Below are positions 3,654 to 60,078 of a stretch of DNA of 64,000 nt, piece by piece. Position 1 is the stretch's first letter. Every line of letters begins with the position of its first letter. The position numbers were made by a program, and so were the translations under genes. The DNA is from a virus (lineage: Duplodnaviria; Caudoviricetes), in the IMG/VR virus record IMGVR_UViG_3300012916_000002, positions 908-64,907 of that record; one strand, given 5' to 3'. The notes under the pieces are model-generated. The model searched no databases and was not told where the DNA came from. It saw only the letters and a list, made by a program, of their open reading frames with translations.

Positions 3654-4742
3654 ATGGCTGGACGAGGCGCCGTCACAGCTTTCGGAGACCACTGCGAGTG
3701 GACCGGAGCGAGTGCGGATTTCAGGGATTCATGGCTCATTTCACGCCGGCAAGGCATCGGCGGGAGCGATGTCGCGGCCGTGCTCGGACGGAGCCGGTGG
3801 AAGAGCGAGCTCGCTCTCTATGTCGAGAAGATTTCCGAGGCTCCGCCCGACGACGAGGCGAGCGAGATCGCAAACTGGGGCCGAATCTTCGAGCCCCAAA
3901 TCCTGAAGGAGTACGCCGGGCGCGTGAAGCGGCGCGTCGTGCGCGGCGGAAAGCTGATGCGCTCGAAGCGCTCGGCGCATCACCTCGTCACGCTCGACGG
4001 CGTGCAGCTCACCCGTCCGCCGCCGTGGGCGAAGGGCCCGGGCGTCGCCGAGGTCAAGACGACCGGCTACGGCGAGCGCTACGACGAAGACATCCCGATC
4101 GAGGTGCAGATCCAAATCCAGTGGGAGCTCTTCGTCACGGGCGCGAGCTGGGCGACGTGCATCTGGCTCCCCTTCCCCGAGCGAAAGCTTCAGTGGCTCG
4201 ACGTCGAGCCGAGCCCGAAGGTGCACGAGATGCTCGTCGAGCGCGTCGACCGGTTCTGGCAGCGCGTGCAACGGCGCGAGCCGCCGGACCCGGACGGCAG
4301 CGAGTCGAGCATGCTCGCGCTCCGCGCTCTCTACCCGGAGGACAACGACGAGGTCATCAAGATCATCGGCGCGACGAGCCTCGCCGACGAGTACGAGCGG
4401 AACCGGGCCGCGCTCAAGCTGCTCACCGAGCGCCAGGGCCTTCTCAAGAACAGCCTCGCGGCGACGATCCGGGAGGCGAAGTACGCGGTCCTCGAAGACG
4501 GGCGCTACTGGGGCACCGCCTACTACCAGGCACGCGAGAACCGCTGCCGGCACTGCGAGGCCGTGCTCTCGAAGGTCGAGCCCTACCGGACGTACACGCT
4601 CCGCGACGCGCGGAAGAAGCCATTCCCGGCCATCAGCGAGGCGCGGCAACTCGTCGGCTTCGACACCCTGACGATGCAGCTCAGCCAGTCGCTCGTCGGC
4701 CCGTCCGAGCCGAGCAACGAGACCGAGGAGGTGAGCGCGTGA
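3654..4742 (+). CDS. YqaJ-like viral recombinase (lambda-exonuclease family)
   Basis: 'WLISRRQGIGGSDVAAVLGRSRWKS', 'TLDG', 'EVKT', 'QIQWEL'; start could be 3615 or 3654. Confidence 0.92.
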   Translation: MAGRGAVTAFGDHCEWTGASADFRDSWLISRRQGIGGSDVAAVLGRSRWKSELALYVEKISEAPPDDEASEIANWGRIFEPQILKEYAGRVKRRVVRGGKLMRSKRSAHHLVTLDGVQLTRPPPWAKGPGVAEVKTTGYGERYDEDIPIEVQIQIQWELFVTGASWATCIWLPFPERKLQWLDVEPSPKVHEMLVERVDRFWQRVQRREPPDPDGSESSMLALRALYPEDNDEVIKIIGATSLADEYERNRAALKLLTERQGLLKNSLAATIREAKYAVLEDGRYWGTAYYQARENRCRHCEAVLSKVEPYRTYTLRDARKKPFPAISEARQLVGFDTLTMQLSQSLVGPSEPSNETEEVSA

Positions 4743-5086
4743 TCGCCAAAGCAATCGCCCTCCTCCACCGGTGGCTCGCGCACGACGACGAGAACCTCGA
4801 CGAGACGCTCGACGACGAGACCAACGACCTGCTGCTCGCCTACTCCGTGCCGCGCGCGGAGCTCGACCAGGCCGTGCTCGATGCCTGCGCGAAGCTCGAC
4901 CTACGCGTGCACCCGACGGGTCTCGTCACCTGCTACGGCGGCGGGCGCGAAGTCGAGTTGCTCGAGCACGCTCGCCGCCAGGCGAAGGCGAAGGCCGACG
5001 CGGCTCGGCGCGAGATGCTCTCGGTCGGGCCCGAGCTCCGGGAGCGGGCACGCGCCGCGCTCCGCCGATTGGAATCGCTCCGGTGA
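4739..5086 (+). CDS. hypothetical protein
   Basis: GTGA overlap with upstream stop; high-GC3 codons (VIAKAIALLHRW...). Confidence 0.65.
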   Translation: MIAKAIALLHRWLAHDDENLDETLDDETNDLLLAYSVPRAELDQAVLDACAKLDLRVHPTGLVTCYGGGREVELLEHARRQAKAKADAARREMLSVGPELRERARAALRRLESLR

Positions 5087-5445
5087 GTTGCCTCGGGGGG
5101 GGGCTGCTCGGGCTCGTCGATCGCCTACCGATCGACGAGCTCCCGGCGAGCTATCGAGCGCCGCTCCGCGCCTACGTCGAGCGCGGCGTCCTGCCCGATG
5201 GCACGCTTCGGCTCCTGCTCGAGGGTAACCTCGCGAGCGCCGTCGATCGGGCGCCGCCGGCCACGCTCCTCGATACGTGCGCCGTGAGCCGCTGGCTCCG
5301 CGAGCACCTGCCCGCGTCGTGCCATGGCTGCCGCGATCAGGTTCAGCTCTGGATCGTCTACGTGCGCCGCGCCCGCGGTCGCGCGCTGCTCGCATCATTC
5401 GACGGAGGCCACGATGGGGATGCCGCGCCAGAAGCCGCACCGTAG
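5083..5445 (+). CDS. hypothetical phage protein
   Basis: GTGA overlap; 'YVERGVLPDG.LRLLLEGNL..AV...WL....P..CHG' pattern typical of small phage proteins. Confidence 0.6.
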   Translation: MSCLGGGLLGLVDRLPIDELPASYRAPLRAYVERGVLPDGTLRLLLEGNLASAVDRAPPATLLDTCAVSRWLREHLPASCHGCRDQVQLWIVYVRRARGRALLASFDGGHDGDAAPEAAP

Positions 5446-5983
5446 CCGGCAGGACTACGGGACACCGCCCGAGCTCTTCGCCGCTATCGAGCGGCGCTTC
5501 GGCACCGCGACCTGGGATGTCGCGGCAACCGCCGACAACACGCTCGTCGCCGACCGCTTCTTCTCGGTCGGCGGGATCGACGCGCTCACCGATGACTGGT
5601 CGCTCCGCTTCACGCGGCGCGATCTGCTCTTCCTCAATCCGGAGTTCGGCGGCATCGGCCCGACGTGGGCGCCGCTCGTCGCGCGCTGGACGCGCAAGCT
5701 CCCGTGGCTCCGCGTCATCATGCTCACGCCGGCAAGTATCGGGAGCGAGTGGTTCCAGCGGTTCGTGCATCGGAAGGCGATGGTGCTCGGGCTCTCCCCT
5801 CGCCTGCACTTCGTCGGCGCCGATGACCCGTACCCGAAGGATTGCATGCTGAGCTGCTTCGGCTTCGGCGTGACGGGCTTCGACGTCTGGCGCTGGGATG
5901 AGGACCTCGCCGCGCCGCCGCTGCCAACCGTGAAGCGGGCCGCAAAGCGCGTGCTCTCAACGGTACAATCCGTGCCGATCTAG
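5414..5983 (+). CDS. phage N6-adenine DNA methyltransferase (phage Dam-like family)
   Basis: 'QDYGTPPELF..IERRFG...DVAA...N', 'DALT.DW', motif IV variant 'FLNPEF', 'TPAS..SEWF'; GGAGG SD before ATG 5414. Confidence 0.85.
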   Translation: MGMPRQKPHRSRQDYGTPPELFAAIERRFGTATWDVAATADNTLVADRFFSVGGIDALTDDWSLRFTRRDLLFLNPEFGGIGPTWAPLVARWTRKLPWLRVIMLTPASIGSEWFQRFVHRKAMVLGLSPRLHFVGADDPYPKDCMLSCFGFGVTGFDVWRWDEDLAAPPLPTVKRAAKRVLSTVQSVPI

Positions 5984-56489: not shown

Positions 56490-57083
56490 TCAATGAACCG
56501 GGTCGTCGCTCCCGTCCGCGCCGTTCGCGCCGTCGAGCGCCTGCGACTTGAGCGCGCGCCGCGGGCGCCGGCCGTCGCGGGCGTACGCGAGCTTCTCCTC
56601 GACGGTCCAGCCCTGCACGGGGTCATGCCGCTCCGTCACGTCGAGCTTCTTCGCCGGCTCGATCCCGAGATAGAACCCGTAAGCGCGGAGCGCGTCGAGC
56701 CCGACCCGGAGTGACTGCGCGTCACCGTTGCCCATCGCCTTCGCCCGGATCGTGTCGATGTTTTGGAGGAGTAGCGCGCGCGCTTCCTGGAGCGCCTTCG
56801 GATCGTCGCGGAGCCGGAGCCGGATCACCCGGTTCGCCTCCGCCGCGATCTTCCGCACGTTGCTCGGGTCGCAGTTCCATTTCTTCGCGAGCAGCTCGTC
56901 GGTCACGCCGGAGAGCCAGGCGCCGCGGCTCATCATCGCGATCACCTCCGCGACCCGCCGCTCGCGGGGCGTTAACCCGGCCAAGCTCGCGGCATAGCTC
57001 GGCTCTTCCGGCTCCGCGGGCGCCCTCGCCGCTCCGTTCGAAACATGGATCGGTTTGGCTCTAGACTTCAGCGGCTTCGACAT
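56490..57083 (-). CDS. probable terminase small subunit / HTH packaging protein
   Basis: HTH-like 'ELLAKKWNCDPSNVRKI', helical middle, 'GIEPAKKLDV' tail; downstream of the ParB-like/methylase cassette. Confidence 0.55.
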   Translation of the reverse strand: MSKPLKSRAKPIHVSNGAARAPAEPEEPSYAASLAGLTPRERRVAEVIAMMSRGAWLSGVTDELLAKKWNCDPSNVRKIAAEANRVIRLRLRDDPKALQEARALLLQNIDTIRAKAMGNGDAQSLRVGLDALRAYGFYLGIEPAKKLDVTERHDPVQGWTVEEKLAYARDGRRPRRALKSQALDGANGADGSDDPVH

Positions 57084-57254
57084 TCGGCGTTAAACCTTTT
57101 CGTACGCGTACGCGGGAGGGACCCTGCTCGACCGCCAGGCGCTCCCAACTGCTCGACATCCCAGCGACCAATGGGCCCCCCGGCATCGCTGCCAACCCGG
57201 TGAAAGCGCTCGACTTCCACCCGACCAACGACCTGGACATTTGCCGCTCCGGCA

Positions 57255-58696
57255 TCAGACCGCCTCGACGAACCCGGCAGCGGTCCGACCCAGCCTCGAG
57301 AAGACCTGATCCCGCAGCGCCCCGGCGATGGCTCGCATCATGAGCGGAGGGACGGCGTTGCCGAGCCGGGCCCACTGCTCCGAGAAGGTTCCGCGCAGCT
57401 CGTAGTCTGCCGGGAAGCCGCAGATGATCCGGAGCTCGTCCATGCTGAACTTCCGCGGCTTGCTCGGATGCGTCGCGGTGTGGCCTTGATTGGCCGCGAT
57501 GCATGGCGCCGGCTCATCAGGGCTCGAGCGTATCAGGATCGCGAAGATGGCGGAGAGCGCCTCCCGCCGCCTCGCATACTCGGAACCTGCCGATGACGCC
57601 CGACAATGCATCACGTGGGCCGTGGAGTGGCTGCGTCCCATCACGTAGGTGTGGTGCATCGCGACCTCAAGCCGAGCAACATCATGCTTGCGCCGAATTT
57701 TGCCTTCGAATGCCAAAGTCGGTCACCTTGCTCCTTCAAGCTGCATGCCGGGAGCGCCGGCGTGGCGACGCGCTCGATGACCTTGAAGTGAACCGCGTTC
57801 AGCGCGTTGACGCCCGACATGATCGTCGGGCACGGTCGATCGGTTACATCGCCCTGACTCCATTGACCGCTCGTGTCGTGCATCACGCGATCGATGACCT
57901 TGAAGTCAGTCGGCGCAGCCGCAGTGATCGTGGATGCTGGCTCGTCCAGACTGCTGAGGTTCACTCCGCCGTGAAAGCCGGGCCCTCGATTACCGAAGCT
58001 CGCGAGCCCCGGCAGCACCTCGCGCAGTGAGTAGCGGTAGCCGAGCGGCTTCGGAAACTCCGGCTCGAGCCCGAGATCCTTCCGGACGCCCACGAAGATC
58101 GAGCGTGAGCGGCTCTGCGGGACGCCGAGCCATTGCGCGTCGAGGACCTTGCAGCGGACACGATAGCCGGCGGCTTCCATCTGCCGCATGATGAGCTTGA
58201 AGTAGCCGATGGCCGCGCCGCGCGTGAGCCCCGCGACGTTCTCCGCGACGAAAACGCGCGGCTGCAGGCCCTCGACCAGGCGCACGTATTCGAAGAAGAG
58301 ATCCTCGTTGCACTGCTTGACGCCGTTGCCGTAGTCGCGCTGCGTGCCCCAGCCCTTCGCGCCCTGCCCTGCCGAGCTGAAGGCCTGGCACGGAGGCGAG
58401 CCGTTGAAGACGTCGAGCTCGCCCCGCTCCAGGCTGATGGCGTCGAGGATGTCTCGTGCGTCGACCTTCCGGATGTCTCGCCCATCGAGCAGCGTCTCGG
58501 GGTGGTTGGCCGCGTAGCTCTCGCGCGCGATGGGCAGGAACTCGTTCGCCCAGAGCACGCGGCAGCCCGCCATCTCGAAGCCGAGGCAGCTGCCGCCGCA
58601 GCCCGAGAAGGTCGAGGCGACCGTGAGCCCGGCGGTGCCGCGAGCTCGGGCCACCTCGGCCATGCTCGGGATTCGGAAAGGCGGTTTGGTCGTCAT
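57255..58696 (-). pseudogene. dcm: C5-cytosine DNA methyltransferase, interrupted near 57545-57730
   Basis: Motifs I 'FSGCGG', IV 'GSPPCQAFS', VI 'ENV', VIII 'VPQSRSR' in frame 58696-57641; motifs IX-X 'RKFSMDELRIICGFP..RLGNAVPP' in another frame ending at 57255. Confidence 0.85.
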
Positions 58697-58699
58697 GTC

Positions 58700-59083
58700 T
58701 TGTCGTCTCTCGGTCACGAGCGCGTCGGTGAACCCCGGTGCCGTGCGCCCGAGCTGTGTGAAGAGTCCGTCGCGGAGGTTGGCCGCGATCGCGTGCATCA
58801 TGGGGGGGCACCGCGTTGCCGAGCCGGGCGTAGCGCTCGGCGTAGGTGCCCTCGAGGATGAAGTCTGCCGGGAAGCCGCAGATGATGCGCAGCTCGTCGA
58901 GGCCGAAGCGACGCGGCTCATGCGGTAGAGTGACGCCAGCGCCATTAGCGCCTTGGACGGTGATGCACGGGCAAGGCAAGTCCGGGTCCGCGCGAATCAG
59001 GCTGAAGTACTTGAGCGATGCGCCGCCCGGGCGCAGTGTCTCCCATTCCTTCAGCAGGCAAGGCGCGAGACCCGTCCGGTCGA
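58700..59083 (-). pseudogene. second copy of the C5-MTase C-terminal segment (TRD end + motifs IX-X), upstream of the main MTase
   Basis: 'LKEWETLRPG..SLKYFSLIR..RRFGLDELRIICGFPAD..RLGNAVPP' then a frameshift at the G7 run 58802-58808 into 'MMHAIAANLRD..', which runs without a stop into MTTKPP. Confidence 0.8.
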
Positions 59084-59764
59084 CTACGCGGGCTCGGTTG
59101 CCTTCAGCGCCTTCGCTGCTTTGCCCTTCGAGCTGGGCGCCCCGCTCCATTCGTACGCGCATTTCGGACAAGTATAGTCCGTCTTCGCGTCGATGCTCAC
59201 CTCTGAAAAGTCGGAGGGCGGCAGCACGTTATTCGGTTCCATGAGCGCATCGAAGGTCGCCTCGTCGAAGCCGAGCCGGAAGGCGAGCCCATCATCGAGG
59301 CCGATGTCCTTGATCAAGTCGCGGAGCGCGACGTCATCGAAGCGCCCGCGCTTCTGGTCGAACTCGATGGTCATCTCTTTCGCGCGCCGCTCCGGCAGGT
59401 TGTCGAGGAAAACCATCGGCGCCTTCGTAAAGCCCAGCTCGATGCCGATGCGCCAGCGATGCTCGCCGTCGATGATGAGGTTGCGCTCGCGACCCTTGTC
59501 GTCGGTGCGCCAGATGAGCAGCGCGTAGGCTGCGAGCCAGCCTTCGTTCTTCATGCCCTCGCGCGTGCTCTTGACCTGGTGCTCTGTCATGCGGTTCGGA
59601 TTCCAGGGATTCGGACGCACGCGCTCGAGCGCGATGATCTCGACCTTCCCCCGGATCTTCGGCGGCTCTCCGGAGGCGGCGAGGCCGCCGATGGGAATGA
59701 CTGGCGCCGGCTCGGATGCGGCTCGGCGCGGGCGTTTCGTTGCGGCAGACGTCTTTTCAACCAT
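59084..59764 (-). CDS. ParB/Srx N-terminal-domain protein with C-terminal zinc ribbon
   Basis: 'VRPNPWNPN', 'IIDGEHRW', 'CPKCAYEW'; typical partner of phage methylases. Confidence 0.85.
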   Translation of the reverse strand: MVEKTSAATKRPRRAASEPAPVIPIGGLAASGEPPKIRGKVEIIALERVRPNPWNPNRMTEHQVKSTREGMKNEGWLAAYALLIWRTDDKGRERNLIIDGEHRWRIGIELGFTKAPMVFLDNLPERRAKEMTIEFDQKRGRFDDVALRDLIKDIGLDDGLAFRLGFDEATFDALMEPNNVLPPSDFSEVSIDAKTDYTCPKCAYEWSGAPSSKGKAAKALKATEPA

Positions 59765-59862
59765 GCTGCAGTGTGCCGGATATTGCCGCGTCATTTCAAG
59801 ACGCCTGCGTTTATCTGTCTAGCGTCGTAGACAGATGAGCCGCGCCGCGCTATGCTTAAAGG

Positions 59863-60078
59863 GTGACGAGCCGCGAAGTTATCCAAATCATGAAGCGGCT
59901 CGGCTGCGTCGAGACTCGCCAGAAGGGCTCGCACAAGTACTTCGTCGCGCCGTGCGGAAAGTGTCGCACCCCGGTCCCGGACCATAGCGGCGACATCGCG
60001 CCGGGTACGCTCGCCAACATCGAAAGGTTGATGACCCCATGCTTCGGAAAAAAGTGGCTCACCGCTCGTTCAAAGTAG
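59863..60078 (+). CDS. hicA: HicA-family mRNase toxin
   Basis: 'RQKGSHKYF', 'VPDH.GDIAPGTL..I'; TAGACA-17-TATGCT promoter 6 nt upstream. Confidence 0.92.
   Translation: MTSREVIQIMKRLGCVETRQKGSHKYFVAPCGKCRTPVPDHSGDIAPGTLANIERLMTPCFGKKWLTARSK

Follow-up and report, generated by a model that had tools for sequence, protein, structure and literature searches.

Based on the arrangement of motifs at one locus of a phage contig, we asked how the parts of a C5 cytosine methyltransferase came to lie in three different reading frames, and whether they represent a working enzyme, a step towards a circularly permuted one, or a gene that has been broken. The window, i.e., the whole 64,000-nt stretch of DNA that was analyzed, belongs to a metagenome-derived virus record of IMG/VR with a CheckV completeness of 100%. 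On its minus strand, at 57255-59171, an N-terminal TRD-IX-X piece is followed by a core with motifs I-VIII and two TRD-like units, and then by a second TRD-IX-X piece. A sequence-only reading of the same DNA had described this order and had called for an alignment of both copies to PF00145. The Pfam search recovered the order as three PF00145 matches in three frames: profile positions 264-312 in frame A (copy 1; 58803 to about 59096), 2-168 in frame B (the core, about 58064-58624; E 1.6e-41) and 255-322 in the third frame (copy 2; 57255-57716; E 1.2e-8). The contig has no further PF00145 match. Between the two IX-X copies, which are related as had been stated, protein identity was computed at 60-65% (roughly 55-60% had been estimated by eye) and DNA identity at 76% over 115 nt.

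The upstream neighbor is a protein with ParB_N and zinc-ribbon domains (59084-59794, minus strand; Pfam ParB_N, E 5e-5). The first part of the N-terminal module (58803-59162, minus strand, frame A, with ATG 59162 as candidate start) contains a TRD of the type 'KEW..L.PG..S.KYF', motif IX, and motif X up to GNAVPP. It is 65% identical to copy 2 and was matched by blastx to the N-terminal modules of P0006, P0027 and P0003 and to the C-terminal modules of P0008 and P0012. Homology in frame A stops at this GNAVPP, where the reading goes out of frame, and resumes in frame B with the second part of the module (58697-58801, minus strand), which consists of the motif X helix (MMHAIAANLRD...), the tail GFTDAL and a 7-residue linker. 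This part is 60% identical to the tail of copy 2 and collinear with the fused relatives P0002, P0003, P0006, P0009 and P0016. GFTDAL is the usual C-terminal tail of the family; here copy 1 has no stop and continues through the linker into the conserved internal Met of M-TTKPPF, as the earlier reading had noticed. This Met, the N-terminus of relatives without the extra module, starts the catalytic core (58001-58696, minus strand; PF00145 2-168), which carries motifs I (FSGCGG), IV (SPPC), VI (ENV) and VIII (QSRSR) and is 74-79% identical to its relatives. In the variable region that follows (57731-57949, minus strand; blastx matches to P0005, P0008 and P0015) there are two tandem 39-codon TRD-like units with the pattern D.P.PTI...FKVI[DE]RV and a 22-nt repeat (57768/57885, spacing 117), and then the first residues of the terminal TRD. 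A filler of 194 nt with fragments of a Ser/Thr kinase gene (57537-57730; Pkinase match) separates these from the remnant of the C-terminal module (57255-57536, minus strand; PF00145 255-322), i.e., the end of a TRD (LIRSSPDEPAPC..), motif IX, motif X (GNAVPP) and the tail GFVEAV directly followed by a stop, which had also been read correctly. The remnant shares 76% identity with P0023 (85 residues) and 73% with P0004 (93 residues), and its last 32 residues are exactly those of P0004.

When motifs were located by regular expression, I, IV (PC), VI (ENV) and VIII (QxRxR) were found together in one polypeptide, P0001 (I65-IV136-VI187-VIII229). Motifs IX and X never occur in the same polypeptide as I-VIII in the window, and are present twice, in two other frames. 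The gene-finder ORFs at the locus are P0001 (386 aa) and P0203 (118 aa). Every conserved motif is intact on both sides of both breaks; against inactivity, motifs intact on all sides would also fit a gene that is still in use.

The first break is the sole offset between the N-terminal module and the core. It lies at a run of seven C (G7 on the plus strand; 58802-58808) within GTG-C7-ATGATG, at the VPP(P/L)MM site of motif X, and moves all downstream coding sequence of the gene into the +1 frame. The frames are open on either side of the run (ORFs 57990-59171 and 57641-58945), in agreement with the earlier statement that copy 1 is out of frame only here. A run of six or nine C would join them, as had been proposed, into a single ORF of about 506 codons from ATG 59162, longer than the suggested 480 or so. 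The nearest relative, L142, reads GTC CCC CCC CCG ATGATG at this site, with nine C in frame (VPPPMM), so that the run of the window is 2 nt shorter; this is a length difference between contigs and not within one population. In L001, L063, L143 and L144 the site reads CCn CCn CTC/TTG and the tract is absent. Since relatives do not conserve the tract, it resembles a side effect of proline codons in GC-rich DNA more than an evolved switch, and the frame shift looks like an ordinary slippage deletion. Three-proline variants of motif X are common in the family, and in 64 kb there are, including the C7 run, only three G/C homopolymers of 7 or more. The flanks of the tract had no exact match in IMG/VR, and a single homopolymer miscall at the run is possible. 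General frameshift noise in the contig is unlikely, since the record is rated complete, long G/C runs are confined to the three mentioned above, and the neighboring genes are intact: 13 neighboring genes of L001 and 4 of L143 can be aligned with the window without a change of frame, most of them full-length, and the alignments of the ParB-like neighbor with its homologs in L001 and L143 likewise stay in a single frame. The nearest homologs of the methyltransferase (57-79% identical) are encoded on contigs of uncultured phages that share one gene order with the window: HicAB, ParB-domain protein, methyltransferase, a product of about 190 aa, and then a THIVI_2564 protein. The ParB-like gene adjoins the methyltransferase in all of them.

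The sequence CCC-CCC-C is a known +1 slippery context. Given this and the C9 allele of a relative, it is conceivable that the permuted enzyme is made at full length to some extent, or that the population is mixed. The start codon of copy 1 had been described as unclear, and our analysis agrees: an ATG that overlaps the ParB stop is present in L063, L143 and P0003 and absent from the window, where the only candidates are ATG 59162 and ATG 59150, both inside the 3' end of the ParB gene. A -1 slippery heptamer linking ParB with the N-terminal module was looked for by eye and not seen, and a scan of 56900-60000 for promoters and terminators gave nothing above shuffled sequences.

The same layout was then compared across relatives. 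The order IX-X-I-IV-VI-VIII-IX-X is encoded by a single ORF in P0002, P0003, P0006, P0007, P0009, P0016, P0022, P0027, P0028, P0066 and P0121; ten of these come from the 120 listed homologs (499-583 aa), and the eleventh from a second search. At the level of clusters, at least 11 at 90% identity and 7 at 50% identity encode the fused layout as one frame, the latter, which may be further cases or overlap with the 11, having been found with one N-terminal module as query among 1.84 billion cluster representatives. At all six relative loci with DNA (L001, L003, L063, L142, L143 and L144), the N-terminal module contains no stop and shares the frame of the core, and in the fused relatives a short linker ends at the Met which starts the unextended ones. 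Additional arrangements exist: two modules stand in tandem after the core in P0201, P0209 and P0310, and P0206, with five matched stretches, has three or more modules with a motif X, plus additional IX-like repeats, distributed over both sides of its core. Pairwise Nei-Gojobori dN/dS values of the N-terminal modules (0.03-0.65) fall in the same range as those of C-terminal modules and core; for the close pair L001 and L142, pS is 0.27 and pN 0.01. The core of the window gave values of 0.14-0.24 with its closer relatives (L001, L063, L142-L144) and 0.57 with the distant L003. These substitution patterns indicate that the N-terminal modules of the relatives are under purifying selection, and, judged from the comparative data, the fused layout is an old, recurrent and selected architecture of the family. 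Searches of the accessible literature found no description of C5 methyltransferases with duplicated IX-X or supernumerary TRD-IX-X modules.

Was the duplication a recent event in this phage, on the way to circular permutation, as the sequence-only reading had suggested? The topology, IX-X / I-VIII-TRD / IX-X, is that of a 5'-truncated tandem duplicate, and the two copies, at the identities given above, share the same general TRD type, so the resemblance to an intermediate of permutation by duplication holds. In the relatives, a partial upstream copy is fused in frame to a complete copy, as such an intermediate requires, and in the window this fusion is broken by the 2 nt that distinguish it from L142. 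The two copies are not each other's closest paralogs, which a recent duplication would make them. In a tree of IX-X segments, built from a short alignment and of low resolution, the N-terminal modules do not form one clade, and at least four origins or exchanges are forced. The N-terminal module of the window groups with the C-terminal modules of P0018, P0019 and P0031 and not with its own copy 2, and copy 1 is 71% identical to the C-terminal module of P0019, closer than to copy 2; P0066, whose two modules are sisters, is the exception. Together with the many diverged relatives of the same layout and the low DNA identity between the copies, this makes a recent duplication very improbable, and what the window retains is an old and recurrent architecture, not an intermediate caught in this phage. 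Within one protein, the IX-X parts are 67-82% identical while the TRDs ahead of them are mostly unrelated. The motif X residue, Asn or Arg, is the same in every module in 20 of 20 multi-module proteins (14 with Asn only, 6 with Arg only), and shared ancestry may explain much of this uniformity.

The second break lies in the C-terminal TRD, where the normal C-terminus had already been suspected to be disrupted. According to blastx breakpoints, P0008, P0015 and P0023 are collinear with the window to ..SLKE and again from LIRSS; homology of the core frame to P0008 and P0015 ends after ..SLKE (57731) and resumes in another frame at LIRSS.. (57536). Between these points, the relatives have about 15 codons and the window 194 nt, a net gain of 149 nt that shifts the frame, and the filler also carries a stop at 57641. 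The lost terminal TRD codons include the conserved W..L.PG..S.K.F block. Of the 194 nt, 146 match, in three pieces and at 86-94% identity, a Ser/Thr kinase gene, L157. Plus-strand 57606-57709 corresponds to L157 4337-4440 (85.6% nucleotide identity; 91% of 35 residues), 57710-57733 to the next 24 nt of the kinase gene in inverted orientation (L157 4467-4444), and 57538-57555 to the following 18 nt (L157 4466-4483), positioned upstream of the first piece. This scrambled pattern at the scale of microhomology looks like template switching or filler DNA. This kinase, about 352 aa, is encoded in an operon of PP2C and twin kinases in an uncultured bacterium, and the filler is bacterial DNA, presumably from the host, inside a phage gene. 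No paralog of the kinase fragment was found in the contig or in any of the loci examined, and the phage collection gave no match to it. As a side observation, the kinase family gives a loose indication of bacteria that have a PP2C and twin-kinase operon. The few named homologs, which give a weak hint to the host, belong to several Alphaproteobacteria, but also to other phyla, and a scan of genome contigs returned only distant MAG matches of 57% identity or less.

Since the contig is metagenome-derived and neither junction has a second copy in IMG/VR, where the filler junction was searched by exact match, the filler, the frameshift or both might be assembly artefacts. We consider such a chimera hardly credible: collinear methyltransferase sequence flanks the filler on both sides, the filler is scrambled at a scale of 20-100 nt, below typical read length, and the neighboring genes are intact.

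The separate frames could also encode a split enzyme, in which an alpha polypeptide (I-VIII, from Met 58696) is complemented in trans by a beta polypeptide, either ORF C with the TRD end and IX-X, the frame-A product, or both. Complementation in trans is known for split C5 methyltransferases, e.g., M.AquI, and for engineered pairs of fragments (PMC5944983, PMC3404938), both gene-finder ORFs exist, and a GAGG lies at a workable distance before ATG 57659. We regard this as improbable, because the beta start and its ribosome site are the reverse complement of a kinase motif and stand there by accident, about 15 terminal TRD codons with the conserved block are gone, and the frame-A product lacks the motif X helix, lost right after GNAVPP. 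In M.AquI and M.EcoHK31I, as in the window, I-VIII and IX-X are encoded separately, but the split in the window consists of a frameshift and a foreign filler that deletes part of a TRD, and not of an organized gene pair.

A further alternative is that the C run is variable in the population, or miscalled, and that with C6 or C9 the locus encodes a naturally circularly permuted enzyme whose C-terminal module has been cut off by the filler. Permutation by duplication would thereby reach its final step, possibly with an ON/OFF contingency switch. No stop interrupts either frame across the run, all motifs of the N-terminal module and of the core are intact, and L142 carries an in-frame C9 at these codons. 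Enzymes that are naturally permuted and begin in the variable region are active (PMC5944983). Structure predictions point in the same direction. The AlphaFold2 model of full-length P0016 (pTM 0.71) has the canonical fold formed from the core and the C-terminal module (M.HhaI 1-326 aligns to 140-519; Z 30, rmsd 2.8, 286 residues), with pLDDT of 78-91 for the N-terminal IX-X helices and 65-78 for the linker. When P0016 was cut after the TRD-like units, i.e., without the C-terminal module, the model of N-terminal module and core scored higher (pTM 0.82; IX-X helices 90-98, linker 89-91), which is consistent with an N-terminal module that may complete the fold when the C-terminal one is absent. 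In both models the N-terminal TRD has a pLDDT below 50, and sequential structure alignment of the truncated model covers the core alone. Several points weigh on the other side: the tract is not conserved among relatives and looks like the product of PPP codons, C7 is short for a contingency tract, the N-terminal module has no start codon nearby, and decay accounts better for a second lesion in the gene. Furthermore, IX-X before the core with none after it, the fixed permuted order that the earlier reading had proposed to look for in related phages, was not found among 120 and 150 listed homologs. We therefore hold a permuted enzyme under a variable run to be rather unlikely.

In our preferred reading, the locus is probably a twice-damaged, three-part phage C5 methyltransferase gene, a recent pseudogene that is most likely inactive. 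Its ancestor would have been a single frame, with an N-terminal TRD-IX-X module, linker, core (I-VIII and TRD-like units) and C-terminal TRD-IX-X module. A slip to C7, in a run that arose from the proline codons of motif X, would have separated the core and the N-terminal module. In place of about 15 codons of the C-terminal TRD, 194 nt copied from a bacterial Ser/Thr kinase gene would have been inserted by something like template switching, and the resulting shift and added stop would have uncoupled the C-terminal module, so that two mutations cut one frame into three. The enzyme is most likely inactive because no polypeptide, as sequenced, joins I-VIII with IX-X, and the absence of visible further decay would make the pseudogene recent. 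With just one of the lesions, a working enzyme would have remained, canonical if the N-terminal module was lost and permuted (IX-X-I-VIII) if the C-terminal one was. We infer that the ancestral activity was ordinary SAM-dependent formation of 5mC, since both modules have Asn in motif X and CmoA is absent.

This last point concerns the closest solved structure, CmoX (8yf3; E 1e-47; Z 35, rmsd 2.5 over 289 residues), a phage DNA cytosine C5-carboxymethyltransferase (PMC12783734). In this group, Asn versus Arg in motif X (R350 in SpCmoX) determines the use of SAM or carboxy-SAM, and members are defined by SPPC, the motif X Arg and CmoA in the genome (PMC12783734). The CmoX paper mentions a ParB-domain neighbor and does not mention extra modules (PMC12783734). 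The window shares the SPPC motif and the ParB-domain neighbor, and the motif X Arg occurs in about half of the listed homologs. A carboxymethyltransferase of the CmoX type was nevertheless rejected for the window, as both modules read GNAVPP and CmoA (TIGR00740) was not found in the contig.

Among known systems, the permuted enzymes come closest in order. Natural circularly permuted C5 methyltransferases include M.BssHII, M.Alw26I, M2.Eco31I, M.Esp3I and M2.BsaI, and REBASE held 27 of them in 2018, all opened in the variable region (PMC5944983). As in M.BssHII, IX-X with a TRD precedes motif I, and a C6 or C9 allele of the window would share its exact order. In contrast, the relatives keep a second complete C-terminal TRD-IX-X and the window is out of frame, and IX-X before I-VIII with no later IX-X in one frame was found neither in the window nor in the relatives listed. 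The permutation-by-duplication model goes back to Jeltsch 1999 (via PMC3320104), and that review, citing the same work, describes duplicated intermediates as documented in natural DNA methyltransferases. In the directed evolution of M.HaeIII, tandem duplicates truncated at the 5' or 3' end were obtained (Peisajovich, Rockah, Tawfik 2006, as cited in PMC5944983). Like these, the relatives have a partial upstream TRD-IX-X joined in frame by a short linker to a complete copy. Unlike them, the state of the relatives is natural, recurrent and under purifying selection, with modules that usually carry unrelated TRDs, so that the fused relatives look like a maintained design and not a passing stage. 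The multispecific methyltransferases of Bacillus phages (M.SPRI, M.Phi3TI, M.H2I, M.Rho11sI) bear tandem TRDs in one variable region with a single IX-X. They resemble the present family as phage orphan C5 methyltransferases with several recognition elements on one core, for which evasion of more than one restriction system is plausible. They differ in that several TRDs sharing one IX-X were not found here; the extra TRDs of the relatives bring their own IX and X, and are N-terminal or in tandem after the first motif X.

We tentatively suggest a wider view of the clade, including its carboxymethyltransferase cousins, in which one core may be served by two or more complete TRD-IX-X modules, placed before the core, in tandem after it, or at both ends, that dock alternately or across subunits, so that a single protein modifies several sequence contexts. 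Such enzymes would be natural, selected counterparts of permutation intermediates held to be 'impossible to observe', and in the window, with the C-terminal module knocked out, the permuted enzyme would be one poly-C slip from expression. If true, multispecificity would be achieved by swapping the whole small domain together with the cofactor-site helix. Provided that the modules dock alternately, this would be a novel way for one enzyme to modify several DNA motifs, and so to escape several restriction systems. The half-copies carry different recognition domains, yet keep the same cofactor-determining residue in all multi-module proteins examined. Permutation by duplication predicts working intermediates with a redundant half-copy, and the layout described here proves to be stable and under selection across many phages. 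The multi-module family may thus serve as a natural test bed for change in protein topology, and the window, as a natural 'knock-out' of each module, would illustrate both 'exits' from the duplicated state.

A search of protein clusters with the N-terminal module (TRD, motif IX and motif X) as the query recovered relatives P0201, P0209, P0310 and P0206. In P0201, P0209 and P0310 a tandem pair of complete TRD-IX-X modules lies C-terminal to the core of motifs I-VIII. P0206 (813 aa) has a single core and at least three modules with motif X, together with additional IX-like repeats on both the N- and C-terminal sides of the core; five of its stretches were matched in the cluster search.

The start of the methyltransferase gene overlaps the stop of the upstream ParB gene in loci L063 and L143 and in the contig of the related protein P0003. 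This overlapping ATG is absent from the corresponding stretch of the window, 59084-59171, from locus L001 and from the nearest relative, L142. In these three, the module frame is open for 25-40 codons upstream, into the zinc-ribbon codons of ParB, and a conserved ATG within those codons is formed by a Lys-Cys or Arg-Cys codon pair.

Tandem 39-codon units (D.P.PTI ... FKVI[DE]RV; 57767-57949), similar to the latter half of the terminal TRD, occur in the variable region of the methyltransferase, and a 22-nt repeat with copies at 57768 and 57885 marks them. Relatives carry from none to four such units, with four in the homolog P0005. For the filler that interrupts the C-terminal TRD (57537-57733), the match is to one particular Ser/Thr kinase family, with proteins of about 350-368 aa. 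The operon that encodes them specifies two kinases (P0347, at 4001-5059 of the bacterial locus L157; P0348) together with a PP2C-like protein and a protein of 178 aa. Three pieces from a single 147-nt stretch of the kinase gene are present in the order C..A-B, with B inverted; the kinase-matching pieces leave out about 50 nt (57556-57605).

Elsewhere in the window, a Dam-type adenine methyltransferase match (PF05869, E 5e-13) was detected on the plus strand at about 5435-5827; no PF01555 or PF02086 methyltransferases were found in the contig. The longest G/C homopolymer of the window, a G9 run (5095-5103), begins 9 nt past the stop of ORF 3698..5086.

An Asn in motif X has been associated with SAM and an Arg with carboxy-SAM (PMC12783734). 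This residue was uniform across the modules of each protein in all 20 multi-module proteins, 14 being N-only and six R-only. Because Arg occurs at this position about as often as Asn among the listed homologs, many relatives labelled 'C5 methyltransferase' may, judging by this residue, be CmoX-type enzymes, that is, DNA cytosine C5-carboxymethyltransferases.
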